A stretch of 64,000 nucleotides of DNA from positions 387,493-451,492 of the forward strand of contig NZ_PZOX01000005.1 of NCBI RefSeq assembly GCF_003044305.1, given 5' to 3'. This stretch comes from Vitiosangium sp. GDMCC 1.1324 (GTDB lineage: Bacteria > Myxococcota > Myxococcia > Myxococcales > Myxococcaceae). Under the pieces are notes generated by a model. That model made no database searches. It was given only the letters and a program-made list of their open reading frames with translations, and was not told the DNA's origin. This document shows positions 15,913 through 64,000 of this stretch, in pieces. Made by a program: the position numbers and the translations under genes. Each line of letters starts with the position of its first letter. The first letter of the stretch is position 1.

Positions 15913-17496
<1,584 letters not shown>

Positions 17497-25193: not shown

Positions 25194-25301
25194 CCCTCTG
25201 CCGTCACCCTACCAGAACGGCTCTGTGTCGCGGGCCCTCTCGCGGCGGTAGACTCCCGGAGTGCCCGCCGTCAGGCCGCTTGCCCAGGGAGCCAGCCCGT
25301 C

Positions 25302-27058: not shown

Positions 27059-27083
27059 GACGCACTGACGGGCCATCGGGCAA

Positions 27084-27101
27084 AGGAGCGGAAGCGCTCC
27101 T
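27084..27101. terminator. short hairpin between convergent genes (aggagcg-gaag-cgctcct)
   Basis: 7-bp stem with no U-tract. Confidence 0.25.
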
Positions 27102-27124
27102 CTGCCCAGGCCTGACCGCTCTGC

Positions 27125-29971: not shown

Positions 29972-30275
29972 GGGCAGCAATCTCCTTCCCTTTGATACAC
30001 CCTCGAATCCCATGAAATCAAGATTATCGAGCACAACCAACAAGACCCGTAGAAACGCGCTGGGTTTATTCTCGACAAAGTGTTCTCGGGCCCATCGCGA
30101 GTCGCGGATGAGTCCGTAAACTTCCGCCCGTCGTTGAAAACCGTGTCCACTCCGCCGGGCATATCACCGCCAGAGTGCACACCCCCCCCATCGAAGCCAC
30201 GAGAGCACGCCTCGGTCTTCGATTGAGCAGTGATTGGTGTTACAACGGTACAACCCCACCACGGGAGAACCTGCA

Positions 30276-30839
30276 ATGACTCGACGTATTCTCGTGTTCC
30301 CCATGATGCTGCCCCTGCTCTTCACAGCGGCGTGTGGCCGTGTCGACGCCAACTCCGAGGAGGCCGTCAAGGAAGACTCGATGGACCAGGGTGCTGACTC
30401 GGCCGGCAGATGCACCCTGGCGGGTTGCTCATCCGGCTTCGAGCTGCGTGTTCCCATCCACGTGAGCCTCGAGAAGCTGCGAACGAGCACCGTGTCCGTG
30501 TGCCACAACACGCTCTGCTACACGAGCGGCCTCGAAACGCTCGGGAAGACGAACAACACCATCCACTTCCCCGATCTTTCGAAGCGCGACGCCGAGCACA
30601 CTCCGCTGATTGTCGTCGCGGTCGACCAGCCCACGAATAGCGGGCTCCAGCTCCAACTCTCCTATGACACCTGGTCACTGAAGGATGTGCAGGACGGAGA
30701 CGCATACGACGTGACCCTCACGGACGAGCACGGTGAAAAGTTCGTCGAGGTACACGAGACGGTCTCGTACCAGACCCTCCAGCCCAACGGCCCGCAGTGC
30801 GCCCCCACGTGCTGGCGCGCCACGATCGACAAGACCTGA
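30276..30839 (+). CDS. hypothetical lipoprotein
   Basis: MTRRILVFPMMLPLLFTAACG lipobox. Lower GC than the bulk. Confidence 0.5.
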   Translation: MTRRILVFPMMLPLLFTAACGRVDANSEEAVKEDSMDQGADSAGRCTLAGCSSGFELRVPIHVSLEKLRTSTVSVCHNTLCYTSGLETLGKTNNTIHFPDLSKRDAEHTPLIVVAVDQPTNSGLQLQLSYDTWSLKDVQDGDAYDVTLTDEHGEKFVEVHETVSYQTLQPNGPQCAPTCWRATIDKT

Positions 30840-30857
30840 TCGTGAGTTCCGGACTCC

Positions 30858-40876: not shown

Positions 40877-41104
40877 GGGAACCTCCTGGAGCGCCGGTCC
40901 TGGGGTGAGACCGGACCTCACTGTCAGTGAAAAACTATAAGATTCCGGGAAAAAAGACTACCGGGAAACGTATGTACGCCCAGATATAGCCGAGAGGAGG
41001 GCCACGTCGAAAGCCAAACACCTGAAATTGTTGGGTAACGGGCAAGCGAGAGGGCAAGGAAACGCTCGACGGGCGAGGGGGCGAGGCGACAAAGTGGGCG
41101 GCCT

Positions 41105-41791
41105 ATGACGCGACTGATGCTGGTGTGGGCGCTCATGCCGCTCGCGGCGGTGGCGCAGGAGACGAAGGCGCAGCAGGCCCCGACGTCCGAGGCGGTGAGG
41201 CAGGAAGCGAAGCGGGAGAACTTCGGGGCGGTGGTGGCGCCGGCGGCGCTGCCGGACGGGGCGACGGCGATCTCCGGGTGGGTGGGAGTGCCGGAGGTAG
41301 GGGTGGCGTATCGCCAGGGGACGGCGGGCTGGGAGATTGGGGCGAGGGCGCGCTTCGACTATCTGCGGCTGGCGGTGACGGCGGAGGCGGTGGCGAGGCA
41401 CCAGGTGTGGACGGACACGGAGAAGTGGACGGTGGCGGCGGAGCTGGGACTCGGGGTGACGGGGAACACGGGGAGCCGGTACTTCGACGAGAAGAACCTG
41501 GAGGGATGGTTCCTGAGGCTGAACCCGGCACTGGTCGCGAGCTGGAAGGCGGCGGAGACGGTGACGGCGGTGGGGCTGGTGGAGGTGCCGTACGACCTGG
41601 GACTGAGCCCGAGCGGGACGTGGCGGGTGAAGCCGATGGCGGGAGGAGGGGCGGAGATCTACCTGGGCGAAGACCTGTCGCTGTCCGCGGTGGGCGAGCT
41701 GGGAGTGGACGTGTTCAAGGAACTGCGAGGGGTGACCCAGACGCGACTCGGTTACGGGGTGCGCCTGGGCCTGGGACTGCGTCTCTTCTGA
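41105..41791 (+). CDS. outer-membrane beta-barrel protein
   Basis: Signal peptide (LMPLAAVAQE), alternating amphipathic strands, and a C-terminal ...LGLGLRLF. Confidence 0.6.
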   Translation: MTRLMLVWALMPLAAVAQETKAQQAPTSEAVRQEAKRENFGAVVAPAALPDGATAISGWVGVPEVGVAYRQGTAGWEIGARARFDYLRLAVTAEAVARHQVWTDTEKWTVAAELGLGVTGNTGSRYFDEKNLEGWFLRLNPALVASWKAAETVTAVGLVEVPYDLGLSPSGTWRVKPMAGGGAEIYLGEDLSLSAVGELGVDVFKELRGVTQTRLGYGVRLGLGLRLF

Positions 41792-42159: not shown

Positions 42160-43569
<1,410 letters not shown>

Positions 43570-43577
43570 CAGCGATT

Positions 43578-43607
43578 CCCCCCTCCAGAGTGGTTTCTGG
43601 AGGGGGG
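43578..43607. terminator. bidirectional intrinsic terminator-like hairpin between asnS and the M24 peptidase
   Basis: Perfect 12-bp stem cccccctccaga/tctggagggggg with a 6-nt loop, 9 nt after the asnS stop. Confidence 0.6.
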
Positions 43608-43642
43608 TCATCCGTTGTAGCCGTCGCCGACTCCCGCGCGAC

Positions 43643-44845
43643 CTAATCGAGCTCGAAAATCTTCTGCGGGAACTTGTGGAGCTTCTCGGCCACCCCCTTC
43701 TCACCGACCAGGAAGTTGTCACATACCCAGGTGTATGTGCTCGCCGTGGCGTAGGTGGGATGGACGACGATGTTCATGCTCTTCTGGATGGGCATGGTTT
43801 CATCGAACCGGATGAGGGGCCGTTCCACCATGTCGTAGCCCTGTCCATGACAGTGCAACCGCTTTTCCTCGGGCCTGCCATTCTTGCGCATGAACGCGTT
43901 GTAGGACTCGAATATCTCCTTGCACGAAGCACCGGGCTTGAGCTGATTGAGAACGACCTTCTGCGCTTCCAGGACGAAGGCAAATTCGTCCTTCATTTCC
44001 TGGGAGGCCTTGCCCAATACACAGGTCCGGCCCAACTCGGTGTAGAGCCCGCCGGGTCCGTTGTTCTCTATCAGCAGGGTGAACTGGTCCCCCTTCTGGA
44101 TCACCCGGTTCTGCAGGTGGCGGCTGCCAAACACCGCTGACACCCCGACCGGAGCCGACGAACTCAGGAACAACCCCTGCTCGCTGCCCAGGCTGTGTCC
44201 GACCTGTTCGGCGATGGCGGCCACTTCCAGGTCTCGCATTCCGGGCTTGATCGCCTTGAACACGGCTTCCATGGCCACGTCCTGCATGGCGGCGGTGCGT
44301 CGAATGAGCGTCAGCTCCTCTTCGCTCTTGATCGACTTGATCCGATCGACCATGTCGGAGGCATCCACGAACTTCGCCTTGGAGAGCTTGCCTCGCTTGA
44401 GGTAGTCCACCAGGGCAAAAGACATGGCGGCCGTTCCCAGGAGGCCCACCGTCGCTCCGGCGAAACGCCCGAGCGCCTCTTCCGCGAGCGCTGCATCGTA
44501 TTCAGCGGTGTAATACGCGGAAGCGTAGCTCGGCGAGCCCAGGAATCGTGCGGTGCCACGACGCAGACCATCCCCTTCCGGAGGCAGTTCCCGCACCAGG
44601 CCAAACGCGCCCTGTGCGACCACCGTCATCCGATCGTCCTTCGGGAAGATCACGGTCACCGGGTAGCCGTTGGCCGCCGGCACATCGGTGAAGTATTTGA
44701 CGTACCCCCCCATGAAGTCGTTGTTGGCCTGCATCAACAGCACGTCGATGCGGTGTTCGGCCATCGCGGCCCGCACGGCCGCCCAGCGCCGCTCCAACTC
44801 CGCCGTGGAGATGGCTGTGTTTATCCGCTCAGACATGTCAACCAT
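43643..44845 (-). CDS. M24-family metallopeptidase (Xaa-Pro aminopeptidase/creatinase-like)
   Basis: Creatinase_N-like N-domain plus a pita-bread C-domain with metal ligands (HCHGQGYD, EN..). Lies 34 nt downstream of the NRPS TE gene on the same strand. GC ~56%. Confidence 0.8.
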   Translation of the reverse strand: MVDMSERINTAISTAELERRWAAVRAAMAEHRIDVLLMQANNDFMGGYVKYFTDVPAANGYPVTVIFPKDDRMTVVAQGAFGLVRELPPEGDGLRRGTARFLGSPSYASAYYTAEYDAALAEEALGRFAGATVGLLGTAAMSFALVDYLKRGKLSKAKFVDASDMVDRIKSIKSEEELTLIRRTAAMQDVAMEAVFKAIKPGMRDLEVAAIAEQVGHSLGSEQGLFLSSSAPVGVSAVFGSRHLQNRVIQKGDQFTLLIENNGPGGLYTELGRTCVLGKASQEMKDEFAFVLEAQKVVLNQLKPGASCKEIFESYNAFMRKNGRPEEKRLHCHGQGYDMVERPLIRFDETMPIQKSMNIVVHPTYATASTYTWVCDNFLVGEKGVAEKLHKFPQKIFELD

Positions 44846-44878
44846 CGGTTGTCTCCGTTTCCAGTTCAGGAGCCCTAC

Positions 44879-47800
44879 CTATCCCCTGGCCTGCTCCGCA
44901 CTCCGCGCGGCTCCGGTACTGTCCAGGACCGACTGCAAGCGATCCACGAGCTCTCCCAGGTGGGGCTCCCGCAACATCGTGGAATGCGAACCCGAAACCT
45001 CGATGCTCTCGAAAGGCCCCTGCACGAGCCGCTCCCACGCCGGTTGCAACCCGGCGACGGAAGAGGACGCCGCGGGGAGCCCGGACAAGAGCTCTTCGCG
45101 CGCCCGTAGCGTGGTCATCTTCAGGGAACACGGTTTCGGCGCGTAGCCCAGGATGGCTCGTGCGTTGCGCTCGAAATCGCCGAACATCCGCGAGAACGCG
45201 GTGAGGTCGAGATCCTTCTCACCCGCCGCTCGCGCCTGCTCGTGGACGTGCCGCAGCCTGTCCTCCGGCGTCATCTCCTCCAGGAGCAATCGATCCAGGC
45301 GCGCCACCAGCTCGGCACCGCCCACGTCGGCCGCGAACCACAAGAGGATGCCAACGTCGTCGGAGCAATAGTGGTAGGCCTCTGGCGTCCAGCTGTCGAT
45401 CAGGATCAGGTGCTCGACGCTCTCCCCGCTCTCACGCAACTGGCGCGCCATCTCGTAGGCGAAGATTCCTCCCGTGGACCAGCCTCCGAGCAGATAGGGC
45501 CCCCGCTCCTGGACGGAGCGGATCTGCTCGATGTACTTCGCCACCCTCTTCTCGAGGGTCTCGGTGTCACTGTCGCCGAGGCCCGCGGCACGCAGCGCAT
45601 AGATCGGGCGGCCCTCCCCGAGGCGGTTTGCCAGGGGGACGTAGCAGTTCACGTCGCCACCGGTCGGGTGCATCAAGAAGAGAGGCGCCGCGCTTCCCCC
45701 TTCCCGGAGCGCAATGAGCGGCGTCTGCGGCGCGGCGGGGGGCCGGCCCTCACCCAGGACCATGGCCAGACTCTCAATCGTATCCCCGGTCAGGAGGCTC
45801 GAGATGTGGAAGTCCTGTGCGAATTCCTTGCGGATGCGCGCCATCAACCGGACCGCCAGCAAGGAGTGGCCGCCGAGATCGAAGAAGCTGTCCTGAACAC
45901 CAATGGGACGCCTCTGCAACAACTCCTCCCATATCCGCGTCAGGCGTACCTCGGTCGGAGTACGGGGCGCCACATACTTCGAGGTCGTGCTCTGGAGATT
46001 CTCCAGCGCCGGCAACGCTGCCCGGTTCACCTTCCCGTTCGCGGTCCTCGGGAATTCGTCGAGCAGGACGAACGCAGAGGGAATCATGGGGGAAGGGAGC
46101 CGCTTCTTGAGGAACGCGGCAATCTCCTCGGAAGAAGGCCGCACCTTGCCCGGCACCGTGGACGTCATGTAGGCGATGAGACGCTTGTCACCCGAATCGT
46201 CATCCCGGGCGACCACGACGGCATCCTGAATGCTTTCGTGCTCGGTCAGGTTCCGCTCGATCTCCTCGGCTTCGATCCGGTGGCCACGAATCTTCAGTTG
46301 CTGATCGGCGCGCCCGAAGAACTTGACGTCGCCGTTCGGCAGGAAGCACGCCTGGTCTCCGGTGCGGTACATGCGCGCCCCTGGATGAGTGCTGAAGGAA
46401 TCCGGGAGGAAGCGCTCCGAGGTCAGGGTCGGCCGGTTGTGGTAGCCGCGGGCCACGCCCTCACCACCAATGTAGAGCTCTCCGGTGACTCCGGCCGGTA
46501 CGAGCTGGCGGTTCGAGTCGAGGATATAGAACTGCGTGTTGGCAATCGGCTTGCCGATCGTGATCGCGGCGTCGCTCTCCACGCGGGCGGTGGACGACCA
46601 GATGGTCGTCTCCGTTGGACCGTACATGTTGTGGATCTCGCACGGCAGCGAGGAGAGATCCTTCACCAGGGCGGGCGGCAGCGCCTCACCCCCCAGCATC
46701 AGCATCCGCAGGCCATGGAGTGCCTCGAAGGTCTCGGAATCCATCGCCAGCATCCGAGCCATCGACGGCGTGCACTGGAGGTGGGTGACGCGGTGGCGCC
46801 GGATCTGCTCGGCGATCGAATCGCCTGCCTCGCTCGGCTCATTGCTGAGCTCCCGCAGCCGATTCAAGTACGTGAGGTTGGCCAGGACATCCCGGGTATC
46901 GACGCCGAAGTCGATCAGGCAGGCAACCTCATCGACCCCGATGGCCTTCAGGCGGTCGATAATAGGGAGACACGACTCGGGCGTCCCGAAGAGGCCGATG
47001 TTCCCGAAGAAGCGATCCACGGCCTTGGACAGCAGGAAGTCCATATCCTCCTTGGACAGGCTTTCGAACGAGGTCGTCCCCGCGAGTTGCCCCAGAGCGG
47101 CTTTCATCAGGTCCGCGGAGCACCTCAGGTACTCGGCGAGCGGACCGGGGACCTTGCGCCGCACGTAGTCTTCGTCGTGAGCGACGAAGGTGTGCATCAT
47201 CAACGCGATGTGGCCCTGGCCCGGGTGGCCCGCCTCCGCCCACGCCTCGCGGTAGAGCTTCAGGTTCTTCTCCAGCCCCTCGATGTCCTGTCCGAGGAGG
47301 TGGGTCAGAAGCCCGGCGCCGCGCTGCCCCGCCAGCCGGTAGGTCTCCGGGTTGCCCGCCGCGGTGAGGAAATACGGCAGCTCCGCCTGAATGGGACGGG
47401 GCAAGGTCCTGACCTTCGCCTCCTGCCCCGCGCCGCCCGGGAAGTCGAGCGTCTCCCCGCGCCAGAGCCTGCGCACGGTGTCGATCCCCTCGAGCAGGAG
47501 CCGTCTCCGCTCCGCGTAGTTCTGCGGCATGAGCGCGAAGTCGTTCGCGTGCCAGCCGGACGCGAAGGAGAGCGCGACCCTGCCGTTCGAGAGGTTGTCG
47601 ACGATCGACCACTCCTCGGCCACCCGGATGGGGTTATGCAGCGGAATGACGACGCTTCCGGCCCGGAGCTGGATCCGCTTCGTGGCCATGGCGATCGCCG
47701 CGCTCACGACGGACGGGTTGGGGTACGGGCCACCGAAGTCATGGAAGTGCCGCTCCGGCGTCCACACGGCCGTGAAGTCGTTCTGATCGGCGAACCTGGC

Positions 47801-50800
47801 TCCCTCCATCAGGATCTCATAGGAGTTGTCACCGCCGGCGGCGCTCGCGAAATAGAACAGGCTGAAGTCGATGCCTCTGTCGGCCTGTCCGCTGGCCTTC
47901 GGGGCCCGGGACCGGGAAACCGTCGGCGCGAGCTGCCTCGTGTTCTGGATCACGACCCGGAAGCCCCGAGCGAGCGTCCAGAACAGTTCGAGCACGGAGA
48001 TGTCGAACGAGATGCTCGTGACGGCGAGCCAGGTTCCCACGTCGCCGCCGAGGCGCTCGTCCATCCCGGCGAAGAAATTCACGACGTTGCGGTGGGAGAC
48101 CTCGGTGCCCTTCGGTTTCCCGGTGGAGCCCGAGGTGTACAGGATGTAGGCAAGGTGGTTGCTGCGAACGCCCGAGACAGGGTTCGCGATCGACTCTCGT
48201 GCGAGCGACTCCCGGTCCGAGTCGAGGCGAATCCTCTTCACGGGTGCTGCCGCCAGCGTCCGAGGGGCTCCCTCGCCCATGACGAGGACCTTCGCGCCCG
48301 AATCCTCGAGCATGAACGCCAGCCGGTCCTCAGGGTAGCCCGGATCCAACGGGACGTACGCCCCACCCGCCTTGAGGATGCCGAGCAGTCCCACCATCAT
48401 GTCGATGGAGCGATCGATGCAGATGGCGACGAGGACCTCCGGCCCCACCCCCAGCGATTTCAGGCGGTGCGCGAGCTGGTTCGCGCGAGCATTGAGCTCC
48501 GCGTATGTGAGCTGCTCCTTCTGGAAGATCAGCGCCACGGCGTCCGGGGTCCGCTTCACCTGCGCCTCGAACAACTCGTGAACGCACGTGCCCCGCGCAT
48601 ACTCCACCGCGGTGTCGTTCCACTCCACCATGAGCTGGTGTCGCTCCTCGGCGCTCAAGAGCGAAATCTCCGAGACCCGGAGCTTGGACACATCGACGAG
48701 CGGGCGCGCCGGATCACCTTCGAGCTTCTCGAGAATCGCGGTGAAGTACCGCACGTAGCGCTCGATCGTCTCCTGCTTCCACAGCGCTCCGCTGTACATG
48801 AAGAGGAACTCCAACTCTCCACCGGCCTCGGTGACCTCCAGGTTGAGGTCGTACGGCGTGGCCCTGCGCATCATCGGGCGTTCGGTCAACGTGAGCCCGG
48901 GCAGCTGGATCGCCCCCCGCTCCTCCGCCTGCTCGTAGGAGAACATGACGTCGAAGAACGGGTTGTACCCATGGCCGCCCCCCTTCAGACGCTGGAGGAT
49001 GACGCCCAACGGGAAGTCCTGGTGCTCGTTCGCCTCGAGGCAACGCCGCTTCACCTCGGCGAGGAGCTCGGCGAATGTGGCGTCAGCGGAGACCGCGACC
49101 CGCACCGGGAGCGCGTTGACGAACATTCCCACAGCATCCTCGAAGCCCCCACGCTGGCGCCCGTTCTGTGCCGTGCCAATGGTGATGTCGTGCTGCCCCG
49201 TGAGCCGCTGCAACAGCGTGTGGCAGGCCGAGAAGAGGAGCATGTAGAGCGACACGCCATGCTCGCGTGCCCGCTTCCGCAGGAGCCGCGCCGAGCGGCG
49301 CACGCGAACCTCTCCGCCCTCGAAGCACTGCACCGCGGGCCGCGGGAAGTCGAGCCCCAGCTCGAGGCGCGGCACCTCATCCGATAGGCGGTCACGCCAG
49401 TAGCGTTCCTGTGCCGCGGAGGCCTCGCTGAGCAGGAACTCCCGCTCCCACGTGGCATGCTCGCGGCCCTGCTTGACCACGGGAGGGAGTGCCTCGCCTT
49501 TGTACAGCGCCACGAGCTCCCGGACCACGATCGAGCCCGTGGTGCCGTCAGAGGTGATGTGGTGCAGGTCGATGGCCAGCACGTGCCGCTCTTCCGCCAC
49601 CCGGAGCAGTCCTGCTCGGAAGAGAGGGGCGCTCGAGAGGGTGAAGGGCCGGATGAACTGCTGAAGCCATCCGTCGATGTCCCCGTCCACGGCGCGTTCG
49701 AGCTCGAATGGGACCGTCGGATGGACGCGCTGGACGAGCCGACCGTCGTCGCACAGCACGAAAGAGCTGCGCAGGGCTTCGTGCCGCCGGATGATCTCCC
49801 GGAAGCACGCCTCCAGGCGGACGTTATCCAGCGCGCCGTGGATCTCCCAGGCACCGTAGAGGTGATAGGCCAACTCCCCGTCCGGGAACTGGCACTGGAA
49901 GTAGAGCCCCCGTTGGATGGAGGACGTCGGGTATTCCACCACCGCGGTCAGGTCGTTCGCCGCCGAGGGCGTCGAAGCGGCGGTCGGGGCCACGTCACCA
50001 GAGCCGAGCCGCGGTGAAGGCGGCGGCGCGAATCCGGCCGCCATCATCTCGTCGATGCACTCCTTCAGCGCCGTGACGAACAGACGGATGTCGTCATCCG
50101 TGTGGGCAGTGGAGAGATAGAGGTTTCGGCCCTCCCACACATAGACGCCCTTGCACAGGAGCCGGTGATAGAGGAGCTCCCAGTCGCCCTTGAGCTCGAT
50201 GCGGAACAGCGAGCCGAAGTGCACGAAGCGCACGGGCGCGCCGACCCGCTCGCAATGCTCGTTGAGCTCCCGCACGATCGCGGCCGTCCGCTCGTTGAGC
50301 CGCTCCTGCAGCCCGGCCCCCTCGCTCCGGAGGTGCCGCAACACCGCGCCCGCCGCTGCCAGCGATAGCGGATGGTGGCAGAAGGTTCCAGCGACGAAGG
50401 TGTTCTGCACCTTGGGATACGAGTCGTCGCCAAAGCGCCAGGCGCCACCGTCCACGGCATCCATGAACCGCTGAGTACCGGCCACGATGCCGATCGGCAG
50501 CCCGCCTCCGATGATCTTGCCGTAGGTGACGAGATCCGCGTGGACGCCGAAGTGCGCCTGGGCGCCTCCCGGGCCAATGCGGAAGCCGGTGATGACCTCG
50601 TCGAAGATCAGGGCCGCCCCCGCATCCGCGGTGATACGGCGCAGCTCGTGGAGGAAGCTCCGAGGCTGGAGATCGGGACGTCGGCTCTGCACGGGCTCCA
50701 CCAGCACCGCCGCGAGCTCCGAGGCGCATCCGCGAATCGCCTCGAGCGAGGCAGGATTGCCGTACTCGAGCACCAGGATGTCGGAGACCGTGCCTCGGGT

Positions 50801-53800
50801 CGTACCAGGTGCCAGCGGGGCACCCTGCGCGGTGCCTTCGGAGTCGGCCACCGCCAGAACCCCGTCGAAGGTCCCGTGATACGAGCCGCTGAATATCACC
50901 ACCTTCGAGCGACCCGTGATGGCGCGTGCCAGGCGCAGCGCCACCATCACCGCTTCGGTGCCGGTGTTGTAGAAGGCAACCCGCTCGACCCCGGTGGCCT
51001 CGACGATCATCTTCGCCACTTCACCCGGCAGCGGTGTCATGGGTCCGAGCGGTGCGCCGCGGCCCAACTCCTCGACGACCGCGTCGGCGATGAACGCCGG
51101 GCGGTGCCCGAAGAGATACACTCCGAAGCCCATCGTCACGTCGACGTATGCGTTGCCATCGACATCCCAGACCCTGCCTCCTTCCGCGCGGACGACCTGG
51201 AGCGGATAGGTGATCTCCTTCCAGGAGGGCCGGAACCCGGCGACTGCACGGTTGTTGGCGACCGTCGCCCGGGTCTCCTCGGTGAGGCGCTTCGAGCCCG
51301 GCGTGCGAGCCGTGTAGTCCCGGATGAGCGTCTTCAGGAACTCGCCCTGTCGGGCCTGCAGTTCGGGATCACGCTTCGTGTTGATTCTCCGGTACGGCAC
51401 GAAGGCCGCCGGAGCCCCGGCGCGAGCCACGGGCGCGCTCACCTTTTCCCTGGCGGCGAGCACCGGAGCAGGCCGCACCGCGGGCTCCTTCCCGGCCAGC
51501 GGTGCGGGCGCGCGTGTCCCCGAGGCGTCGTCGCCACGAGCCCGCCGCAGCAGCGCGAGTTGTTCCGTGACGATCCGCTCGACACGTTCCCGAGAGCTGG
51601 CCCCGTCGCTGGGGTGACGCAACAACGCGAGCTGATCCACGACGATCCGCTCGAGCGTCCCCTGCGAGTCGGCGCCGTTCACCGCCGACTCCGCCACCAC
51701 CGGCGCGGTCACCTCCAGCGCGAGCGACGGTTCCTGCGCGGGCTCGGGCGGCAGTTCCCTGTCCAGGAACGACGCGATCTTCCTGACCGTCGACAACTCC
51801 TCGTGGAAGGAATTGACGGGGATCAGCACTCCGAAACGCTTCTCGATGACCTTCCGGAGGCCGAACAGCGCGAGCGAGTCCACCCCGAGCTGGAACAGAT
51901 CATTGTCGACGGGGATCTCGGAGGGCGGGTCGCCCGTGAACCCTCCAACCATCTCGCAGAGCTCGACGAGGATCCTGGCGTCCCGAGCTGCCGTCCCCGA
52001 AGACGCGGGGCCTCTGGACTCAACGGGCGGATGCCGTGGAACGGTCGGTGCCGCGAGCGGCGCGGCCTCCGGGGCCTGGGCCGGGGCCTCCGGTGCGAGC
52101 AACGGGCGCCTGGTGGCCGGAGCCTCGAGCCAATACCGCTCCCGCTGCCAGGGATACGCCGGGAGCGGCACCCGCCGCCCACCCGCGGGGAAGACACGCG
52201 ACCAGTCGATCCGCGCCCCCGTGGACCAGAGGCTTCCCAGCGCCTCGAGCACGCTCACCGGTTCCTCACGGCCAGCGCGCAGCGACACGATCAGCGCCGG
52301 CTCCGCGTCCGGCAGGCAGGCCGTCACCAGGCCGAGCAGCGTCGACTTCGGGCCCACCTCGACGAACGTTCCCGCTCCGGCTTCGTGCAGCGCTTTCACC
52401 CCGTCCGCGAAGCGAACCGCCTCACGCACGTGGCGCACCCAGTAGCCCGGCGTACTCACCTCGTCCGAGACCCGCTTCCCACTCAGGTTGCTGACCAGCG
52501 AAAGCGACGGTCGCCGGTAGGTGACCGACTCGGCCACGCGCTCGAACGCTTCCAGCATCGGCCCCATGAGTGGCGAGTGGAATGCGTGAGACACGCGCAA
52601 CTGCCGGGTACGCACCCCACGTGCGGCGAATGATGCGGCAATCGCGTGCACGGATTCCGCGACGCCCGCGATCACCACCTGCTCCGGCCCGTTGATCGCG
52701 GCGATCGACACCGAGGCCACATGCGATGCCAGTGCGGCGGCAACCTCGGACTCCGGAGCGGAGATGGACACCATCGCTCCACCAGCCGGCAGCGCCTGCA
52801 TGAGCCGGCCGCGAGCCGCCACCAACCGCACCGCGTCTTCGAGTGAAAACACACCTGCCACACAGGCGGCCACCAGCTCGCCGATGCTGTGACCCGCCAC
52901 CAGCTCCGGTTCCACGCCCCACGAGCGCCACAGCGCCGCGAGCGCGTACTCCAGCGCGAACAACGCCGGCTGGGTGTACGCCGTCTGGTCCAGCAACGCG
53001 GCCTCGGCGCTGCCCGGCTCGGACCACATAACCTCGCGCAACGGCCGTTCGAGCTCCCGATCGAACAGTGCAATGCACGAGTCGAGCGCCTCACGGAACG
53101 CAGGCCACGCCGCGGAGAGCCCACGACCCATTCCCGGAACCTGTGCGCCCTGCCCCGTGAACAGGAAGGCGAGCTTGCCGCGCGAGGCGTTGGCGGTGCC
53201 GCGCACCGCGCCCTGAGGGAGCTGTCCCTGCGCCGCGGCCTCCAACGCCGCCCGAAGTGTCTCGCGCGAGGTCGTCATGACCGCGAGCCGATGCTCCATG
53301 GGACTGCGTGTCGTCGCCAGGCTGAAGGCAACATCACCGAGGCCCAGCTCCGGGTGCGCATCCACGTGGTCCCGCAGCCGTGCCGCCGCGGCGCCCAGGG
53401 CCTCCGCGCTCCTGGCCGACAGCACCAGAAGCTCCGCCGGCCGCTCGGGCGCAGCGGGCGCGAGCTCCGCCGCTGGCGCTTCCTCCAGCACCACATGTGC
53501 GTTGGTGCCACTCAACCCGAAGGAGCTCACTCCCGCGAGACGCGGCCTGTCCGTCCGCGGCCAGGATACCGGCTCCGTCGCCAGGGAGAGCGCGGACCCT
53601 TCGATCTCGATGTGCGCGTTGAGCGTGCGGAAATTGAGGTTCTTCGGAATGCGCTCCTGCTTGAGCGCGAGCGCCGCCTTGATCAAGCCCGCGACACCCG
53701 CGGCGGCCTCGAGATGGCCGATGTTGGTCTTCACCGCGCCCAGCACACAGCTCGAACGATCGGGCCGCGCCGCCCCCAGCACCGCCCGGAGCGCCTCGAC

Positions 53801-54853: not shown

Positions 54854-57800
54854 GCGAGCACCTCGAACTTCTCGTCGATCAGTCGCGCCAACTCCGCCTG
54901 CGACATGTCCTCGACCTCATTGGAAGAATCAGTGTGGGTCGGCGATGACTTCGCGGGGGGTTCCTCGCGTACTCCACGAGCCAGGTGCCCGCTCAGTGCC
55001 ACCACGGTGGGGTAGGTCCACAAGAGGCTCGCCGGTGCGCGAATGCCCAGCGCGGCCTCGATACGGTTGCGCAACTCCAGACCCATCAGCGAGTCCATGC
55101 CCAGGCTGGAGAGAGGAGCCGCGACGTCGATCTTCCCTTCGGGGATGCGCAGCACCTGCGAGACCTGCCCCCGGAGGAATTCCTGGAACAGCAACGCTCT
55201 CGCGCCCGGCTCGGCAGCGGCAATCCGTTCGAGCAGGTTCCTGTCCCCGACGGGCCGTCCGGCCCGCTGCTCGGCCATCAGCCGCGACAACATCCGCGAG
55301 GACGCCGCCGCCTGGTTGAACCCCACCCACTGCCGCAGATCAAGCGGCACCACTCCCACCTGCGCACGGTCGCTGTCCAGCAGGCGCGCCAGCACGGACA
55401 GGCCCTCGGCGGGGGTGAGACTCTTCATTCCACGAGAGGCCAGCCGCGCACCGCGGCCATCCTGCGCGGCGGCCAGACCCACCTCCGAGAACGCGCTCCA
55501 GTCGATGCTCAGCGCCGACAGGCCCTGCGCCCTTCGGTGGTGAGCCAGCGCATCCATGAAGGCATTGGCGGCGGCGTAGTTGCCCTGACCCGCCGAGCCC
55601 ATGAGGCCCGCCACCGAGGCGTGCATCACGAAGAAGTCCAGCGGCGCCTCCCGGGTGAGCTCGTGCAGGTGCAAGGAGCCCTGGACCTTGGGCGCCATGA
55701 CCTTGCGCAAGCGCGTCGGGTCCTGTTGCTGCAACATTCCGTCGTCCAACAGCCCCGCGGCGTGGACGACCCCGCGCAGCGGCATCCCCGACGCGACCAC
55801 CTCGTCGAGAACCCGCACGAGCTGCGCCCGATCGGCGACGTCGGCTTTCGCCACCGTCACACGGACGCCCCGGGCGGAGAGCGCGTCGACAGCGGTCTTC
55901 TGCTCCGGGCTCGCGGCCCCCGACCGGCCCATCAGCACGAGGTGGCCGGCCCCCTGCTCCGCCAACCACCCGGCCACGCTCAGACCGAGTCCGCCCAGAC
56001 CGCCGGTCACGAGGTAGGAGCTGTCGCGGCGAATCGTGGCGCGGGACTCCGCCGGCACGCGGACCCGGACCTCCGGATCCTCCAACATGAGCACGAGCTT
56101 CCCGAGATGCTGCGCCTGCGCCATCTTCCGGAACGCATCGGCGACCTGGGAGATCGGCAGGGTCGCGATGGGCGGAGGAGTGAACGCACCCGCGGAGATC
56201 AGGCCGAGCATTTCCTCGAAGAGCGCACGGACCCGCGCCGGCTGCTTGAGCATCATTCCCCGCAGGTCCACCAGCGAGAACGACAGGTTGCGCAGGAACG
56301 GCTGCAGACCAAGCCGGTTGTTCGCGTAGTAGTCGCGCTTGCCCAACTCCACGAAGCGACCGTGGTCGCGCAGGAGATTGAAGCTCTTGTTGATGAACTC
56401 GCCCGAAAGCGAGTTGAGCACGACATCCACCCCCTCGCCGCCCGTCCACTCGCGCACATCCGCGACGAACCGGTCCGAGCGGGAATCGCTCACGTACCGC
56501 ACCCCCAACGACTCCAGGTAGGCACGCTTCTCGGGCGTACCGGCCGTCGCGTAGACCTCGGCCCCTACGTGCCGCGCCCACTGCACCGCGGCCAGGCCGA
56601 CACCGCCGGTCGCCGCGTGGATCAGCACCCGCTCCCCAGGCTGCAGGCGGGCCACTCTGTCCAGGGCATACCACGCCGTCAGATACGCGATCGGCATCGC
56701 GGCCGCATCGGTCGCCGAGAGCCCCGAAGGCCGTGGCAGCACCAGCGTGGCCGACGTGGTGACGTGAGAAGCAAAGGCTCCTCCCGCCAGAGCGATCACC
56801 GGTTGGCCCACCGCGAGACCGCTCACGCCCTCGCCCACGGCGACGATACGCCCGGCGCACTCGCCCCCGAGCACCAGCGGTGCGTTGGGCTCCCCCGCCG
56901 TGTCATGAGGCATCACGCCCAGCGCCAGCAGGACGTCGAGGAAGTTGAGTCCCGCCGCCTCGACGGCGATCTGCACCTCGCCCCGACCCGGAGCGCGCCG
57001 CTCCGCGACACGGAGCGCCAGGTGATCGAGCACGCCCGGCTTGTCGATCTCCAGCCGGAAGGGCCTGTCACCCGGGGGCTCGAGCTTCTCCCGGCGCTCG
57101 GTCTCGGGCAGCCGGCGGACGAGCCGGGCCACGAGCCGCTCACCCCCACGCAACGCGACCTCCTCTTCGGCGTCGTCTCCGAGCAACTCCGCCAGCAGGG
57201 CGCCGACCTCGCCTTCCGGACGAGCCGGATCCAGGTCGACGCGACCACACCGCAGCTCCGCGTGCTCCAGGGCGATGACGCGACCCAGTCCCAGAAGCGC
57301 GGCCTGCCCCACGGAGACATCGCCGGCACCAGCGGCCTGAGCGCCGCGGGTCAACAGCCACAGACGCGGCGCATCTCTCCACCCCATACCGGCCAGGGCC
57401 TGCACCGTGTAGAGCACGCTGTCACAACCGCGAGCCAGTGCCGTCTCGATGGCGCCGGAGTCGAGCTCACGTCCCCCATCAAGGCTGCCGAGGTGCACGA
57501 CGGCCGTCGGAGCCTGTCCGCCGAAAGCATCGGCCAGGAGGGCTCGTACGCCAACGGTGCTCGTATCGTTCCCGGTCGCATGGACGACGGCATGGCCAGC
57601 CGCCTCCAGCGCCGAGCGCAACGAGTGGCCGAGTCCATCGCCCCCGCCCAGCAGCAGCCACCGACCCGCTTTGACTCTGGCGGTGGCCGGGGCCGCGGGC
57701 TCCCAGGTGAGATCCAGGAACCAGTCGTCTTCTTCCTTCCGACGCGAGCCGCCTTCCAGTCGCTGCACCACGAGCCCGGAAATCTCGGCGACCCGAGCCC

Positions 57801-60800
57801 CCGTGCTGTCGACCAGCCAGAAGTCGGCACTCCGCCGCTCGGGTGCCTGTTGCCCGGCGCTCACGCTCCGCACATGGCACCACAGCTCCCCCGAAGGCCG
57901 CTGGAACAGCCGCAGCGAGCCCAGCTCCACGGGCACCCACGGCGTCGTCTCTCCGCTGTCGGCGAGCGCGACGGCCATCACATGGAAGCACGCATCCAGC
58001 AGCGCCGGATGCAGCCGGTACGCCGCCGAGGAGCCGGCGAGCTCGGGCAGCCGCACCCGTCCCAGCGCCTCACCCTCACCTCGCCACAGCTCGGCAAGCC
58101 CCTGGAACGCCGGCCCGTACTCGAGCCCCATCCCGGTCAGTGCCGAATAGGCCGCCGCGGCGGGCACACTGGCTCCCAACCGGGCGCGCAGCGCCGCCAG
58201 ATCCAACCCCACAGGGGCCTCGGCGTGCTCCGCCCGACGCAACGTGCCGCGGGCATGGACTCGCCAGGACGCACGGCCGGCGTCCGACATCCGGCTCGCG
58301 ACCTGGAAGTGCAGCCGTCCCGGTTGTTCCTCGGTCGTCACCATCTGCACCGGCACCGCCGCATCACCCGCGAAGGCCAGCGCCTGCGCCAGCACCACGT
58401 CGGTGATCTGGAGCGGGCCATCACCCAGGTCCTCGGCCCCGGACGACAGCGCCATCTCCAGGTACGCCGCTCCCGGAAACACGACCGCCCCCTGCACCCG
58501 GTGATCACCGAGCCACGGCAGCCGCTTGAGATCCAGCGTCGTCTCCCACAGGCGCGTGCTCGTCTCGGTTGAAAGCGTCTGGGACTCACCCAGGAGCGGG
58601 TGGCCTCCTGAATGAGCGCGACGCTTGGAACCCGAGGCGCGCTCGGCCGGCACTTCGAGCCAGTACCGATCCCACTGCCAGGGATAGGTCGGCAGCGGCA
58701 CACTCTGGCCTCCCGCGGGGAACAACCGCTCCCAGGTCACCGGATAGCCCTGCACCCACAGCGCGCCCAGTGCCTCCAGCATCGACGGGCGCTCGTCCTG
58801 CCCACGCCGCAGCGAGCCCACCGCGGCCCCCTCGCGCTCCGACGCCCGCCGGATCTCCTCGACCGAAATCGTCAGGATCGGATGCGGGCTCATTTCCACG
58901 AAGAGCCCATGACCGTCGTCCAGCAGCGCTTGTACCGCTTCGGCGAAGCGCACCGGCTGTCGAAGGTTGTCCGCCCAGTAGCTCGCCCGCAGTTCCGGAC
59001 CCTCCACGGTCGCACCCGTCACCGTCGAGCGCATCGACACCGCCGCTTCCAGCGGCTCGAGCCCGCCGAGCGCGGCCAGGAGCTCCTCACGCAACGGGTC
59101 CACCTGCGGGCTGTGGCTGGCGACGTCCACCTTCACCCGTCGGCAGAACACGCCCTTCGCCTCCAGCGCCGACAGCACCTCCGAAAGCGCCGCCGGATTG
59201 CCCGACAGCACCGTCGAGCGGGGACTGTTGCTCACCGCCACGCCCAGCCGGTCTTCGTAGCCCCGGAGCGCGACCTCGGCCTCGGCCAGCGACAGCTCGA
59301 CGAGCGCCATCTCGCCCTGACCACTGATCCGCCGCAACAGGAGGCTGCGCCGGCAGATGATCGCCACGGCATCCTCGAGCGACAAGGCACCGGCCACATG
59401 CGCGGCCGCGACCTCGCCCATGCTGTGTCCCACCACCGCGTCCGGCTCCACCCCCCACGAGCGCCACAGCGCCGCGAGCGCGACCTCCAGGGCGAACAGC
59501 ACCGGCTGCACCACGTCGATGTGGTCGAGGCGCGAAACGGTCTCATCGGCGGCGAGCTCCGAGAGGAGCGACCAACCCGCTTCGGCCTGAATGGCCCGGT
59601 CGCATGCCTCCAGCGCGGCGCGGAAGACGGGCTCCTGGGCCAGGAGTTGCCGACCCATCCCCACCCACTGCGAGCCCTGGCCAGGGAATACGAAGACCAC
59701 CTTCGGCACACCGCCGGCGGAGGTGCGACCCCGCACGGCCCCCGGCGGAATCTGGCCCTGTGCCGCCGCATCGAGCGCCGCGTGCAACGCCTCGCGGGAG
59801 TTCGCCGCCACCGCGAGCCGGTGCTCCATCGGGCTACGCGTGGTCGCCAGGCTGAACGCCACTTCCCCCAGCCCCAGTTCCGGGTGCGCATCCAGGTGCG
59901 CCGCGAGCCGCCCCGCCACACCATCCAACGCCGTCGAGCTCCGGGCCGACAGCACCACGAGCTCGGACGGACGCGCGAGCAACACCGGCGCGAGCACCTC
60001 CTTCGGCGCTTCTTCCAACACCACGTGGGCGTTGGTACCGCTCAGGCCGAACGAGCTCACGCCCGCCCGCCGAGGCGAATTCCACTCCGGCCATGGCATG
60101 CTCGTGCGCGTCACGGACAACGGCAGTTCGCCCCACGAGAGCCGGGGGTTCAGTGTCTGCGCGTGGAGGTGCGCGGGGAGCCGCCCTTCCCGAAGGGACA
60201 GGACGACCTTCAGGAGCCCGGCGATTCCCGCCGCATACTCGAGATGGCCAATGTTCGTCTTCACCGACCCGAGCAGCAACGGCTCGGCGGAGGTCCGCCC
60301 GGGGCCATACACCACGTTCAGGGCTTCGGCTTCGATGGGATCGCCCAGGGGCGTACCCGTGCCATGCGCTTCGATATAACCCACCGACGACGGGGCGCAG
60401 CCCGCATCCTCCAGGGCTCGCCTCAGCACGGCTTCTTGCGCACTTCCATTCGGCACGGTCAGACCACTGCTCGCGCCGTCATGGTTGATCGCCGATCCTC
60501 GAATCAGGGCCAATACCCGGTTGCCGTCCGCACGGGCCTGACTGAGTCGCTTGAGAACAACGACAGCACACCCCTCGCCGCGCCCGTAGCCATCTGCGTC
60601 CGCCGAGAACGTCTTGCAGCGTCCATCCGTCGCCAGCGCGCGGCTCTTCGAGAGCCACACGAAGGTGCTCGGCGACAGCATCAGCGACACTCCGCCGGCC
60701 AGGGCCATGGTGCACTCCCCGGAGCGCAAACTCTGGCAGGCCTGATGAATGGCCACGAGGGAGGACGAACAGGCCGTATCCACCGCGAAGCAGGGCCCTT

Positions 60801-63800
60801 GCAGCCCCAGGACGTACGAGATTCGGCCAACGCCGACGCTGGGCATCGTTCCCAACCCGGTGTAGGCGTCGATTCCAACGGAGGCCACCGCCTGAGGCCG
60901 GGCGGCCTCATACTCGGACGGGCCGATCCCGACGAAGAGCCCCGTTTCGGTCCCGACGAGTCCCTTCGGAGGAACCGCCGCGTTTTCCAATGCCTCCCAG
61001 CACACCTCCAGCAGGAGTCGGTGCGAGGGATCCATCCGCAAGGCTTCGCGGGGCGAAATACCGAAGAAGGCGGGATCGAAGCTGGCCACATCCTTCAGGA
61101 ACGAACCGCGCGTCACGGACGTTTTTCCCGGGGCATCGGGGTCGGAATCGAGCCACCCCGACACATCCCACCGGTCCGCGGGGAATTCGCCGACGGTGTC
61201 CTTCGCGCTGTCGAGGAGCGTCCAAAGCCCCTCCAGGTCGACGACACCACCCGGCAACCGGCAACCCACTCCGACAATCGCGATTGGCTCCTCGGCGGCG
61301 TCCCCGGCGGGACGGTTCGCCACGAGCGGAGCGGACTCTCCCTTCGTCTCGAGCGAAAGCGCTTCGAGCACGAAGCGCGCGAGCGCCTCGATGTTGGGAC
61401 GCGAGAAGGTGATGGTATCCGAGACCTGCTGCTGAATCCGGTTCGACAGTGCACGCGCCAGCGCCACCGAACGGAGCGAGTCGAACCCGAGCTCCATCAA
61501 TCCCTTGCGATCCGCGTCCTCGCCGATCTCCCTGCCCAGCAGTTCCGCGACCTCGGCCCGGACCAGCCGCCGCACCTCCCGGAACCGCCCGGAAGAGGGC
61601 AACTCCTCCAGGCGTCGCCCCCATGCGGAGGCGTTCGACGAAGCAGCCGTTCGAACGACGGCCAGTCTGCCGTCGCGACCACTCTCCGAGCTCGCGCCGG
61701 TCATCGACCGCCCGTCCTGCGCCAGGAGACACATGGTCCGATGCGGTTGGGGAAACGCGAATCTCCTCCAGTCGATGTCGATGCCCTGCGCATGGAGCGC
61801 CCCGAGGCATGCGAGCAGCGAAGGCCAGTTGTCGCGCTGTCCATTCAACGACGGCGCGCACACGGCAGGACCTTCACCCAGACACTGAACCACCAGGTTC
61901 GTCAGTGTCGCACCGGGCCCGATCTCCACATAGGCGGAGACACCTCGGCTCTGGAGGGTTTCAATGGCCGCCATGAACCGCACCGGCTCCAGCATGTGGC
62001 GAACCCAGTATTCCGGATTCGTCACATCCCCCTCGCGCCCCCCATCCACCGTACTGACGAAAGGAATCTGCGGGGCCGAATAGCCAACCGACCCACATAC
62101 CGCCCGGAACGCGGCCTCCGCGGGCAACATCAGCGGCGAATGGAACGCATGCGCGGTCTGAAGTGGCGTCGTCCGGATCCCCTGGGCCGCGAGCTCCCGA
62201 GACAGGGCCTCCAGCTCACCTGTCTCGCCTGCGAGCACCAGGCTCTCCAGCGCATTGAAGGCGGAGATGACGACTCGTCCAGCACGGCTCGAGAGATACG
62301 GAGTGAGCTGATCGACGCTCGCTCGCACGGCGCACATGGAGCCCGGAATCGCGTGATCCCTCATCGCCTGAGCGCGACCCACGACCAGCCGGATGGCGTC
62401 ACGCAGCGAAAAAGCCCCTGCGACACAAGCGGCCGCGAACTCGCCGAGACTGTGCCCCACAAGCACGTTCGGATGCACGCCCCATGACCGCCACAGGTGA
62501 ACCAAGGAATACTGAAGCGCGAAAAGGGCGACCTGCGCCTCGACACCATCTTCGATCGGCTGGTCCGCATCCCGACACAAGACATCGACGAGCGACCCTC
62601 CGATCAACTCATCCGAGATCCGTGCGCATTGTTCGATCCCGGCACGGAAGACGGGGCTGGTCTCGAACAGCTCTCGTCCCATTCCGGTTCGTGCGGAGCC
62701 CTGGCCGGTGAACACGAACGCCACCACGGGACGCCTGTCGACGACGCGCCGCGCGCCGAGCGCTGGAACGCGTCCCTGGGCCGCGGTCCGCAGGCCCTGC
62801 GCCAGAGAGGCCGCGTCGGCTGCGACAAGAGCGAGCCGGTGCGAGCCTGCGCCGGCATTCACGACGGCCTGGATGTCGCCTGGCGACGATCCTTCTCGAG
62901 ACTCTTGCTCGATGAACCCACCCAATTGCTCCGCGCCACGCCGAAGCTCCTCATCACTCTCGGCGACGAGCGTGCAAAGAGAGACAGGGCGACGGAACGC
63001 CTCGGGCTCCGCGGCCGTTCGGAGGTCGTCGATCCACGCGGGGACCGCGAGGAAGGAACGCGCCACATGGCGATACCGGACGTGGAAGCTATGTCGCGTG
63101 TAGGGGATACCGCGCTCGTCGCCAAGGCTGGCGATCGCGGCCCGAAGCTCGGCATCGAACCGCTCTCGATCGGCCGGGGGGATGACCGAATAGTGTGCCT
63201 CCGAGCGAATCTGCCAGGCCCAATGAGCTTCCAGGGTGTCGTAATGCGCCGTCGTCTCTTCCGTGATCGTCAGCCCGGAGGACTCGAAACCGGAGAACAG
63301 ACCATCGACGATATTTCGATCGAACGCGGCCATCATCGACGCCGCGCGCAGGCGCGTCTCCAGATCGACATATCTGGAGAGGACCTCGGCCGTCTTCCGT
63401 GAGAATTCTCGCCCGGTGTTCAAGCCGATGAACCACATGTCGAGCTCGCCGTCTTCCTTCAGGACACGACGGATTTCGGCGGCGCCTCGCCTGGGATCAT
63501 TGGACCAATGAAATGCCCAGATACTGTACAGATAGTCCACCGAGGCGTCCGCGAGCGGCAGGTCCTCGAACCGACCCTCCCGAAGTTCGACCGAGGCGTT
63601 CCCCGCGTTGCGCTGCTGCGCGAAGAGACGCATCTGCTCGGAGGGCTCAACCCCGATGAACTTCGTGGAAGCAGGCGCGCGACCCTGCAGATGGTGCAGA
63701 GCACCTCCGGTCCCGCACCCGACATCGACGATGACACGATACTGGGGCTTGAGGACAAAGGCCTCGTACGAGCCGCGGGCGTGCTCGCCCCAGAATGAAT

Positions 63801-63870
63801 TTTCGTTCGACTGCGTGTCGTACTTGTCAGCGACTTTCGAATAGCTGGCGGCGGGAATGTTCGAGATCAT
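54850..63870 (-). CDS. type I PKS: N-terminal SAM-methyltransferase-like domain, AT(malonyl)-ACP loading region, then KS-AT(methylmalonyl-like)-DH-ER-KR-ACP
   Basis: MT motif I [13 protein letters not shown]1 GHSLGE/HAFH. ACP LGFDSL. KS DTACSSS/HGTGT. AT2 [12 protein letters not shown] HPLLG...[48 protein letters not shown]. C-terminal docking helix. ATG at 63870 (the ORF track gives a TTG at 63876). Confidence 0.9.
   Translation of the reverse strand: [3006 protein letters not shown]
54982..55209 (-). other. ACP (approx.)
   Basis: [14 protein letters not shown]. Confidence 0.65.
55477..56019 (-). other. KR (approx.)
   Basis: [18 protein letters not shown]; LDD motif; YAAANAF. Confidence 0.7.
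56083..57009 (-). other. ER (approx.)
   Basis: [29 protein letters not shown]. Confidence 0.7.
57757..58605 (-). other. DH (approx.)
   Basis: HPLLGESQ...[17 protein letters not shown]. Confidence 0.65.
58747..59694 (-). other. AT, methylmalonyl-like (VASH) (approx.)
   Basis: [23 protein letters not shown]. Confidence 0.6.
60007..61290 (-). other. KS (approx.)
   Basis: [31 protein letters not shown]. Confidence 0.7.
61357..61599 (-). other. ACP (loading) (approx.)
   Basis: [14 protein letters not shown]. Confidence 0.6.
61777..62724 (-). other. loading AT, malonyl-type (approx.)
   Basis: [22 protein letters not shown]. Confidence 0.65.
63007..63870 (-). other. N-terminal class I SAM-dependent methyltransferase-like domain (approx.)
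   Basis: [18 protein letters not shown]...[12 protein letters not shown]. Confidence 0.6.
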
Positions 63871-63882
63871 CGTCAAGGCTCC

Positions 63883-64000
63883 TCACTGAGCTACTTTCGC
63901 ATTCAGCCAAACCGCGATGTCGGCAATCACTCGCTCGGTTCCAGGCTCGTCCACAATCCAGTGGGCGTTGTTGGCATATTCCAGGTAATCGCCGACGCGC
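63883..64000 (-). CDS. C-terminal fragment of an upstream gene (unknown function; likely part of the same biosynthetic operon)
   Basis: In-frame translation ...RVGDYLEYANNAHWIVDEPGTERVIADIAVWLNAKVAQ*. Its stop is 13 nt before the PKS start. The gene continues beyond the window. Confidence 0.3.
   Translation of the reverse strand, partial: RVGDYLEYANNAHWIVDEPGTERVIADIAVWLNAKVAQ

Follow-up and report, generated by a model that had tools for sequence, protein, structure and literature searches.

Organization of the locus

The window analysed here, a stretch of 64,000 nucleotides from Vitiosangium sp. GDMCC 1.1324 (contig NZ_PZOX01000005.1), holds at its right-hand end a hybrid polyketide synthase/nonribosomal peptide synthetase (PKS/NRPS) cluster, next to which lies a gene for a second asparaginyl-tRNA synthetase (AsnRS), referred to as asnS2. 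We describe the genes of this cluster and its relatives in other genomes, and weigh the possibility that asnS2 encodes a resistant duplicate of the target of the cluster product.

Two very long open reading frames (ORFs) occupy the minus strand, 54850..63876 (PKS1) and 44879..54853 (PKS2/NRPS; Table 1). The earliest start of PKS1, TTG 63876, leaves almost no spacer to the GGAG motif, and ATG 63870, 8 nt after the GGAG, is the likely true start. PKS1 and PKS2/NRPS overlap in an ATGA (54853..54850), where the minus strand reads ...GCATGAAT..., i.e. V-L-A-stop for the former and M-N-N for the latter. ORF calls and overlap sequence agree with the translational coupling of two overlapping megasynthase genes that had been proposed in the initial annotation of this DNA. 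Upstream of PKS1 a further ORF enters from outside the window, in line with the earlier remark that coding runs beyond 64000, and ends with a TGA at 63885..63883; the spacer to ATG 63870 is 12 nt, in agreement with the 13 nt counted previously as an offset. The domain order noted at that stage is reproduced exactly by Pfam, with E-values from 1e-9 to 1e-152. As an inventory, the two megasynthase genes and the gene fragment stand, but the M24-family gene between the NRPS stop and asnS had been left out. No terminator-like site was detected in the 33-nt spacer between the NRPS stop and the M24 gene. The terminator reported beside asnS corresponds to a real, perfect 12-bp hairpin, which likely serves as a bidirectional terminator for the convergent M24 and asnS2 genes. 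It was spotted by reading the sequence, the consensus terminator scan having missed it because it lacks a T-run.

Table 1. Genes, domains and other features of the cluster region, ordered along the minus strand.
Feature	Position	Strand	Basis
alpha/beta-fold hydrolase, C-terminus, 38 codons and stop, cut by window edge	63883..64000	-	Translation and Corallococcus terminator homologue
PKS1, 3006 aa: loading MT-AT-ACP and fully reducing KS-AT-DH-ER-KR-ACP	54850..63870	-	Pfam, motifs
Class I S-adenosylmethionine methyltransferase (MT) domain, N-terminal, aa 1-290, Pfam core aa 47-144	63001..63870	-	
Loading AT, GHSLGE ... R ... HAFH, malonyl-type signature	61780..62718	-	Motifs
Loading ACP, GFDSL	61369..61566	-	Motifs
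KS1, Cys-His-His intact	60160..61290	-	Pfam, motifs
AT1, GHSMGE ... VASH, Ser at discriminating position	58789..59697	-	Pfam, motifs
Reductive loop: DH (HxxxGxxxxP), ER (HAATGGVG), KR (LDD, YAAAN)	55486..58602	-	Pfam, motifs
ACP1	54982..55179	-	Pfam, motifs
PKS2/NRPS, 3324 aa: KS-AT-ACP-AMT, then C-A(MOx)-PCP-TE	44879..54853	-	Pfam, motifs
KS2, AT2 (GHSIGE ... HAFH, malonyl type), ACP2; no KR or DH	51764..54739	-	Pfam, motifs
Class III aminotransferase (AMT), pyridoxal phosphate (PLP)-lysine motif YGKIIGGG at aa 1444	50126..51205	-	Aminotran_3, aa 1217-1576, E 1.6e-50
Condensation (C) domain, HHITSDG	48686..49936	-	Pfam, aa 1640-2056
Adenylation (A) domain, interrupted between A4 and A5 by MOx	46031..48571	-	AMP-binding aa 2095-2304 and AMP-binding_C aa 2864-2941
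Luciferase-like monooxygenase (MOx) insert	46931..47827	-	Bac_luciferase, aa 2343-2641, E 2e-50
PCP and TE (GWSTG)	44936..45946	-	PP-binding aa 2970-3030, Thioesterase aa 3057-3306
M24-family (creatinase/prolidase fold) hydrolase, 400 aa, own GGAG, 33 nt past NRPS stop	43643..44845	-	
Perfect 12-bp GC-rich hairpin between convergent M24 and asnS2	43578..43607		dG -34.8 kcal/mol, z -6.8
asnS2, second asparaginyl-tRNA synthetase, 466 aa, motif 2 FGPAFRAE	42169..43569	+	

All catalytic motifs that were sought are intact, namely the KS Cys-His-His triads, AT GHSxGE, DH HxxxGxxxxP, the ER and KR nucleotide motifs, the ACP/PCP serines, C HHxxxDG, A4-A10, the AMT lysine and TE GWSTG. At the N-terminus of PKS1, the first carrier protein has no KS or C domain ahead of it. 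The loading AT carries the malonyl signature including the carboxylate-binding Arg, and neither a KSQ nor a GNAT decarboxylase domain was found in the loading module by Pfam and motif reading. From published AT motifs, AT1 is predicted to select a branched, methylmalonyl-type extender. In PKS2/NRPS, the MOx insert sits between A4 (FDIS, aa 2283) and A5 (NMYGPTE, aa 2742) of the adenylation domain, the code of which, read by hand against GrsA numbering, is DILQMGMIWK. Eight of its ten positions match the glycine consensus DILQLGLIWK, and the code residues checked are identical in all three instances of the cluster described below. With this glycine-like code, the A domain is presumably glycine-activating.

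The best family match of the MT domain is BioC (TIGR02072) with 57.3 bits, below the cut-off of 184.95, followed by PRK10258 with 39.7 bits, below the cut-off of 342, and BioC proteins are also its closest named relatives. A search with the MT domain returned no full-length PKS orthologue; its only matches were short fragments from metagenomes and, at 40-45% identity, a large family of stand-alone MTs (about 270 aa) from soil metagenomes. In one of these proteins the MT is preceded by a fused ACP (motif GTLDSM), and a GNAT gene follows; other members precede a conserved 352-aa protein without Pfam match. These gene contexts (L004 1678..3482; L005 7596..9937) point to no clear function. An assignment of the domain as a C-methyltransferase of the AprA/SxtA/GphF type was considered and rejected, as no GNAT decarboxylase follows the MT and no such PDB chains are among its matches.

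A conserved five-gene unit

A scan of genome contigs identified one true relative only, on contig RAVZ01000004 of Corallococcus terminator CA054A, where the hydrolase, PKS1, PKS2 and M24 genes occur in the order of the window. PKS1 is 74% identical to its orthologue from end to end and collinear with it (residues 1-3006 vs 1-3007), PKS2/NRPS is 73% and the M24 protein 79% identical. A third instance was detected on a metagenomic contig (L012), which shows 87% nucleotide identity and is collinear with 43302..50610 of the window; it covers the NRPS, M24 and a convergent asnS, and its PKS2/NRPS is 86% identical to that of the window.

In C. terminator, a divergent asnS is located upstream of the hydrolase, followed by insertion sequence (IS) genes of the IS21 (IstA/IstB) and IS4 types and a DDE_5 transposase gene (L001 2298..6869). 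Downstream of M24, an IS66 fragment (L008 11979..12833) precedes unrelated genes. With asnS2 at the hydrolase end, the gene order is a circular permutation of that in the window, and the IS elements that bracket the cluster, asnS2 included, would fit its acquisition as a mobile block. No flanking gene beyond the five is common to the window and C. terminator loci. As delimited by this comparison, the conserved unit is five genes: the hydrolase, PKS1, PKS2/NRPS, M24 and asnS2.

The base composition of the window changes at the asnS2 end of the cluster. GC is 0.64 in asnS2, 0.61 in M24 and 0.62 in the intergenic region before asnS2, and 0.67-0.73 in the genes to the left; the low GC over 42169..44845 fits a foreign origin of this cluster end. 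Directly upstream of asnS2, a plus-strand ORF of 250 aa (41039..41791) has a signal-peptide-like N-terminus and no family match. The C. terminator locus lacks this ORF, which is therefore probably not a member of the cluster.

The gene cut by the window edge can be assigned through its relative. In C. terminator, the gene ahead of the PKS1 orthologue encodes a 287-aa hydrolase (L001:9124-9987) with matches to Abhydrolase_6, Hydrolase_4 and Abhydrolase_1, and the C-terminus of this protein shares 78% identity with the last 38 residues of the fragment (...NNAHWIVDEPGTERVIADIAVWLNAKVAQ), which contain the ...AHWIVDEPG... His region. Against the BioH model TIGR01738 the C. terminator protein scores 23.8 bits (cut-off 206.95), as expected of a generic alpha/beta-hydrolase. 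Judged by this homologue, the gene at the window edge codes not for a synthase but for an alpha/beta-hydrolase some 270-290 aa long.

The M24 gene adjoins the NRPS gene in C. terminator and in L012 as well. Its product belongs to a very tightly conserved family, being 82-92% identical to metagenomic and betaproteobacterial proteins, and such identity across phyla suggests recent horizontal transfer. Relatives with 82-85% identity (contexts L009 and L010/L011) are encoded in an operon with an acyl-CoA ligase, Amidohydro_2, a 2-hydroxyacid dehydrogenase and a molybdopterin oxidoreductase. In an alignment to the Pyrococcus furiosus prolidase 1PV9, the five metal-ligand positions are occupied by Glu, Glu, His, His and Asp, compared to Asp, Asp, His, Glu and Glu as the dinuclear metal ligands of a canonical enzyme. 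Because this set is non-canonical, the M24 protein is probably not an ordinary prolidase, i.e. not a canonical M24B Xaa-Pro peptidase.

A second asparaginyl-tRNA synthetase linked to the cluster

The asnS gene of the window had initially been regarded as a housekeeping gene. Instead, it is a cluster-linked second copy, with the canonical copy on another contig. A search with the window AsnRS (P0241) returned two C. terminator proteins. One of them (P0303) is 99.8% identical to other Corallococcus AsnRS, and its gene adjoins leuS on contig 271 (RAVZ01000271) of the same assembly. The other (P0302), whose gene is on the cluster contig, shares no more than 79% identity with P0303. In neighbour-joining trees calculated without bootstrap, it forms a long branch close to the Vitiosangium/Stigmatella group and does not fall with Corallococcus. 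In Vitiosangium, the second AsnRS (P0383, PTL76880.1) is encoded on a separate contig of 216.6 kb and is 97.6% identical to the Archangium minus AsnRS, with 89.5% identity to the window protein. Both genomes thus carry a canonical asnS elsewhere and a divergent copy beside the cluster. Synteny as a test of the canonical asnS gave no answer, since the neighbours of asnS differ among Archangium violaceum, Corallococcus and the window.

The cluster-linked AsnRS share FGPAFRAE in class II motif 2, as opposed to the usual FGPTFRAE, which is present in 117 of the 120 best myxobacterial matches and in 80/80 metagenomic AsnRS. Among 197 other AsnRS, FGPAFRAE was detected once (P0242), in a protein that the metagenome scan with asnS did not recover. 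The T-to-A exchange affects the residue that directly precedes the Phe-Arg with the invariant arginine of motif 2. The linked copies also share PHSG in motif 3, and they differ at 11 and 16 positions from residues conserved to at least 95%, compared to 0 for the two canonical copies. asnS2 is full length, with the anticodon-binding domain and all class II motifs. Since the linked copies are gapless and the ratio of nonsynonymous to synonymous substitution rates (dN/dS) between them is 0.13, they are, by these measures, maintained under purifying selection. At other asnS loci, cluster genes were found nearby in none of 80 metagenomic cases.

Target-duplicate resistance genes are recognized by duplication, linkage and incongruent phylogeny (bioRxiv 10.1101/2020.06.01.128595; PMC4392301). 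For asnS2 all three are observed, with an active-site change besides. Most likely, asnS2 has been horizontally co-inherited with the cluster and encodes a product-insensitive AsnRS that protects the producer, and we consider it rather probable that its linkage to the cluster is functional. To the overall reading, in which a five-gene orphan hybrid PKS/NRPS cluster includes a duplicated target gene for resistance and makes a candidate AsnRS inhibitor, we assign a probability of roughly 0.6. A more specific model is considerably less certain, and we hold it to be somewhat unlikely in its full form: a 3-amino-alkanamide that mimics asparagine, very small and perhaps bearing a distal carboxylate released from a cryptic methyl ester, would inhibit bacterial AsnRS, and asnS2 with its motif-2 T-to-A exchange would be the dedicated resistant target.

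Several points weigh against the overall reading. The product is known here solely as a prediction from domains, and the absence of biosynthetic genes beyond the hydrolase is argued from relatives and not from the window's own flank. The hydrolase matches the BioH model weakly (24 bits vs the 207-bit cut-off), and the closest M24 relatives reside in betaproteobacterial catabolic operons. The shared asnS2 substitutions may stem from one ancestral event, and so do not count as independent replicates; the A-to-S exchange in motif 3 is natural in distant AsnRS (14/75), and L012 keeps the wild-type residue. Finally, asnS2 could have been carried along through mere adjacency to the cluster. In the most serious alternative, asnS2 would accordingly be a passenger, duplicated or co-transferred as a neighbour in the donor, and the product would have another target. 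Adjacency alone would be enough for co-transfer, shared substitutions can be inherited from a single ancestor and the motif-3 exchange is a natural variant elsewhere. However, the linkage has outlived the rearrangement that placed asnS2 at the other cluster end, both linked copies are full length with the low dN/dS given above, and the motif-2 exchange is present in just 1/197 other AsnRS. Moreover, both producers keep a canonical copy as well, and the predicted product has an asparagine side-chain skeleton. We therefore regard a passenger role as unlikely, if well worth keeping in mind, and favor asnS2 as the resistance gene of the cluster.

Proposed biosynthesis and completeness of the assembly line

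The sequences show the anatomy of genes and domains, the conserved unit, the doubled asnS of both genomes and the rare motif-2 exchange. From these we infer the chemistry and the target, as well as what the MT, hydrolase and M24 proteins may do, and propose that the product is assembled as follows. The loading AT would place malonate on ACP0. Most likely, the fused MT then methyl-esterifies the free carboxylate in a BioC/Art28-like manner, and the resulting unit would prime KS1 without a decarboxylase. Module 1 would add one fully reduced, probably methyl-branched C2 unit, and module 2 would add malonate, the beta-keto group of which would be turned into a beta-amine by the AMT. Next, glycine would be added by C-A(MOx)-PCP-TE, with the MOx hydroxylating the glycine alpha-carbon and the adduct collapsing to a primary amide. 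The hydrolase may later take off the methyl ester. The predicted core product is R-CH(NH2)-CH2-CONH2, i.e. asparagine with a short chain in place of the alpha-carboxylate. Such an asparagine-like core fits the link to AsnRS without being evidence for it.

The detailed product, including methyl-ester priming, is proposed tentatively and at less than even odds. By analogy, the combination of the MT, the loading AT-ACP and the co-transcribed hydrolase suggests Art28/Art9- or BioC/BioH-like priming, which is nevertheless weakly supported because the structure comparison of the MT was non-discriminating. Alternatively, the MT and hydrolase may not act on the starter at all. KS1 would then decarboxylate malonyl-ACP0 to acetyl and the MT would methylate the amine or carboxylate late, while the hydrolase (or M24) would cleave the terminal amide in a MelJ/MelK-like fashion or act as an editing thioesterase. 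The product would in this case be a 3-amino-4-methylhexanoyl (beta-homoisoleucine-like) amide or ester. We judge acetyl priming to be improbable, although a genuine contender to priming by a methyl ester.

In the initial annotation, the cluster was held to be truncated by the window edge, with neither module order nor product deducible from the visible part. The window contains the entire assembly line, since a loading module opens PKS1 and a TE closes PKS2, and a compact cluster that is complete from the MT-AT-ACP loading module to the TE is highly probable. The cut gene encodes the hydrolase, beyond which C. terminator has only asnS and IS elements. In that genome the five-gene unit is circularly permuted, and therefore nothing biosynthetic is expected beyond the hydrolase. 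A compact cluster had been named at the outset as the finding that would speak against truncation and, judged from C. terminator, this is approximately what is observed. A larger assembly line, with more PKS/NRPS modules beyond 64000 and the visible modules only its end, would agree with coding that continues past 64000 and with the distance of only 12 nt between the cut gene and PKS1. It is made very improbable by the identity of the cut gene as an alpha/beta-hydrolase, by the N-terminus of PKS1, an MT-AT-ACP loading module without KS or C domain, and by the collinear C. terminator cluster, which stops at the hydrolase and is followed by asnS2 and IS elements.

The least probable alternative is that asnS2 is biosynthetic, serving carboxylate activation or Asn-tRNA supply, and not protective: aminoacyl-tRNA synthetase (aaRS) paralogues do act as biosynthetic enzymes, e.g. 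AgnA, a truncated AsnRS homologue that works in agrocin 84 biosynthesis (PMC4392301), but asnS2 is not truncated and keeps its anticodon-binding domain and every class II motif, a tRNA-dependent transferase is absent from the cluster, and the MOx in the assembly line already explains amide formation.

Other features of the window

Outside the cluster, a minus-strand gene (30858..33413) encodes a bacterial homologue of the protein that forms the shell of eukaryotic vaults; its 851 aa contain Major Vault Protein (MVP) repeats (Vault, Vault_2/3/4) together with the shoulder domain of MVP (E 2e-45). The gene lies between ruvB (24147..25208) and ruvC (38210..38815), which are about 13 kb apart, together with genes for a 1012-aa GxGYxYP putative glycoside hydrolase (27125..30163, minus strand) and a matrixin-type peptidase (33358..34764). 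GC is 0.61-0.65 over 26000..32000, compared to about 0.69 elsewhere, and this stretch may be an inserted island. Further to the left, an M17 leucyl aminopeptidase ORF (14821..17496, plus strand) has an N-terminal extension of about 390 aa lacking a domain match, with an internal start being possible, and a ScfR-type HTH/M78 regulator is encoded at 11080..12669 (plus strand).

Implications

No gene of the locus is more informative than asnS, which was at first set aside as a housekeeping gene. If the proposed model is correct, the cluster would provide the first known case of an AsnRS resistance gene in a natural-product cluster; no AsnRS natural-product inhibitor with a known dedicated resistance gene was found in a literature search. 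The MT-AT-ACP module would in turn represent a fused cis-AT version of BioC/Art28-type methyl-ester priming and extend such priming of polyketides. Should the linkage of asnS2 be functional, the unit of about 22 kb would be a lead for target-directed discovery, small enough for whole cloning and with a predictable scaffold, and it would bring its own hypotheses, with AsnRS as the target and one motif-2 residue as the resistance determinant.

Comparison with known systems

The module types of the cluster are already known, and the cluster itself is orphan: literature searches returned no characterised product, no MT-AT-ACP/AMT/MOx cluster and no cluster-encoded resistant AsnRS. The parallels to MtaG-type and mycosubtilin-type systems drawn in the initial annotation fit the terminal module and the AMT module, respectively. 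For MtaG/MelG of the myxothiazol and melithiazol pathways, the proposal for this architecture is that glycine is hydroxylated at its alpha-carbon and the adduct then collapses to a primary amide (PMC11411415). The C-A(MOx)-PCP-TE order, the MOx between A4 and A5, the glycine-like code and the TE end are shared with the present cluster, and by analogy so would be the outcome, a terminal primary amide. In contrast to MtaG/MelG, the module follows a beta-aminating PKS module here and would act on a very short chain. The cluster also has no thiazole-forming or methoxyacrylate modules, and the likeness is one of architecture.

In MycA of mycosubtilin, a module of the KS-AT-ACP-AMT type gives a beta-amino acyl chain. 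MycA/ItuA of the mycosubtilin and iturin pathways, and also McyE-like proteins, resemble PKS2/NRPS in the KS-AT-ACP-AMT order followed by C, in the lack of a KR and in the PLP lysine. Unlike these systems, the present cluster lacks both a fatty-acyl-AMP ligase start and a long lipid chain, and the beta-amino acid would be capped by one glycine-derived amide instead of a peptide.

That malonyl-ACP is methyl-esterified for priming and protection has been described for Art28/Art9 of aurantinin (PMC8302727). The likeness to Art28/Art9 and BioC/BioH consists of a class I MT nearest to BioC, a malonyl AT-ACP without decarboxylase and an alpha/beta-hydrolase in the operon. However, the MT is here fused within a cis-AT loading module, whereas Art28 and the assayed homologues were handled as separate proteins (PMC8302727), and compared to BioC/BioH the MT and hydrolase are far below both family cut-offs.

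Target-duplicate aaRS resistance genes are represented by mupM (IleRS, mupirocin), borO (ThrRS, borrelidin) and agnB2 (LeuRS, agrocin 84). asnS2 differs from these in that the enzyme is an AsnRS and that the candidate duplicate has diverged from the canonical copy by no more than about 10-20%. As in mupM, borO and agnB2, a second aaRS gene is located beside the cluster and the canonical copy elsewhere, in combination with an incongruent phylogeny and changes in the active site.

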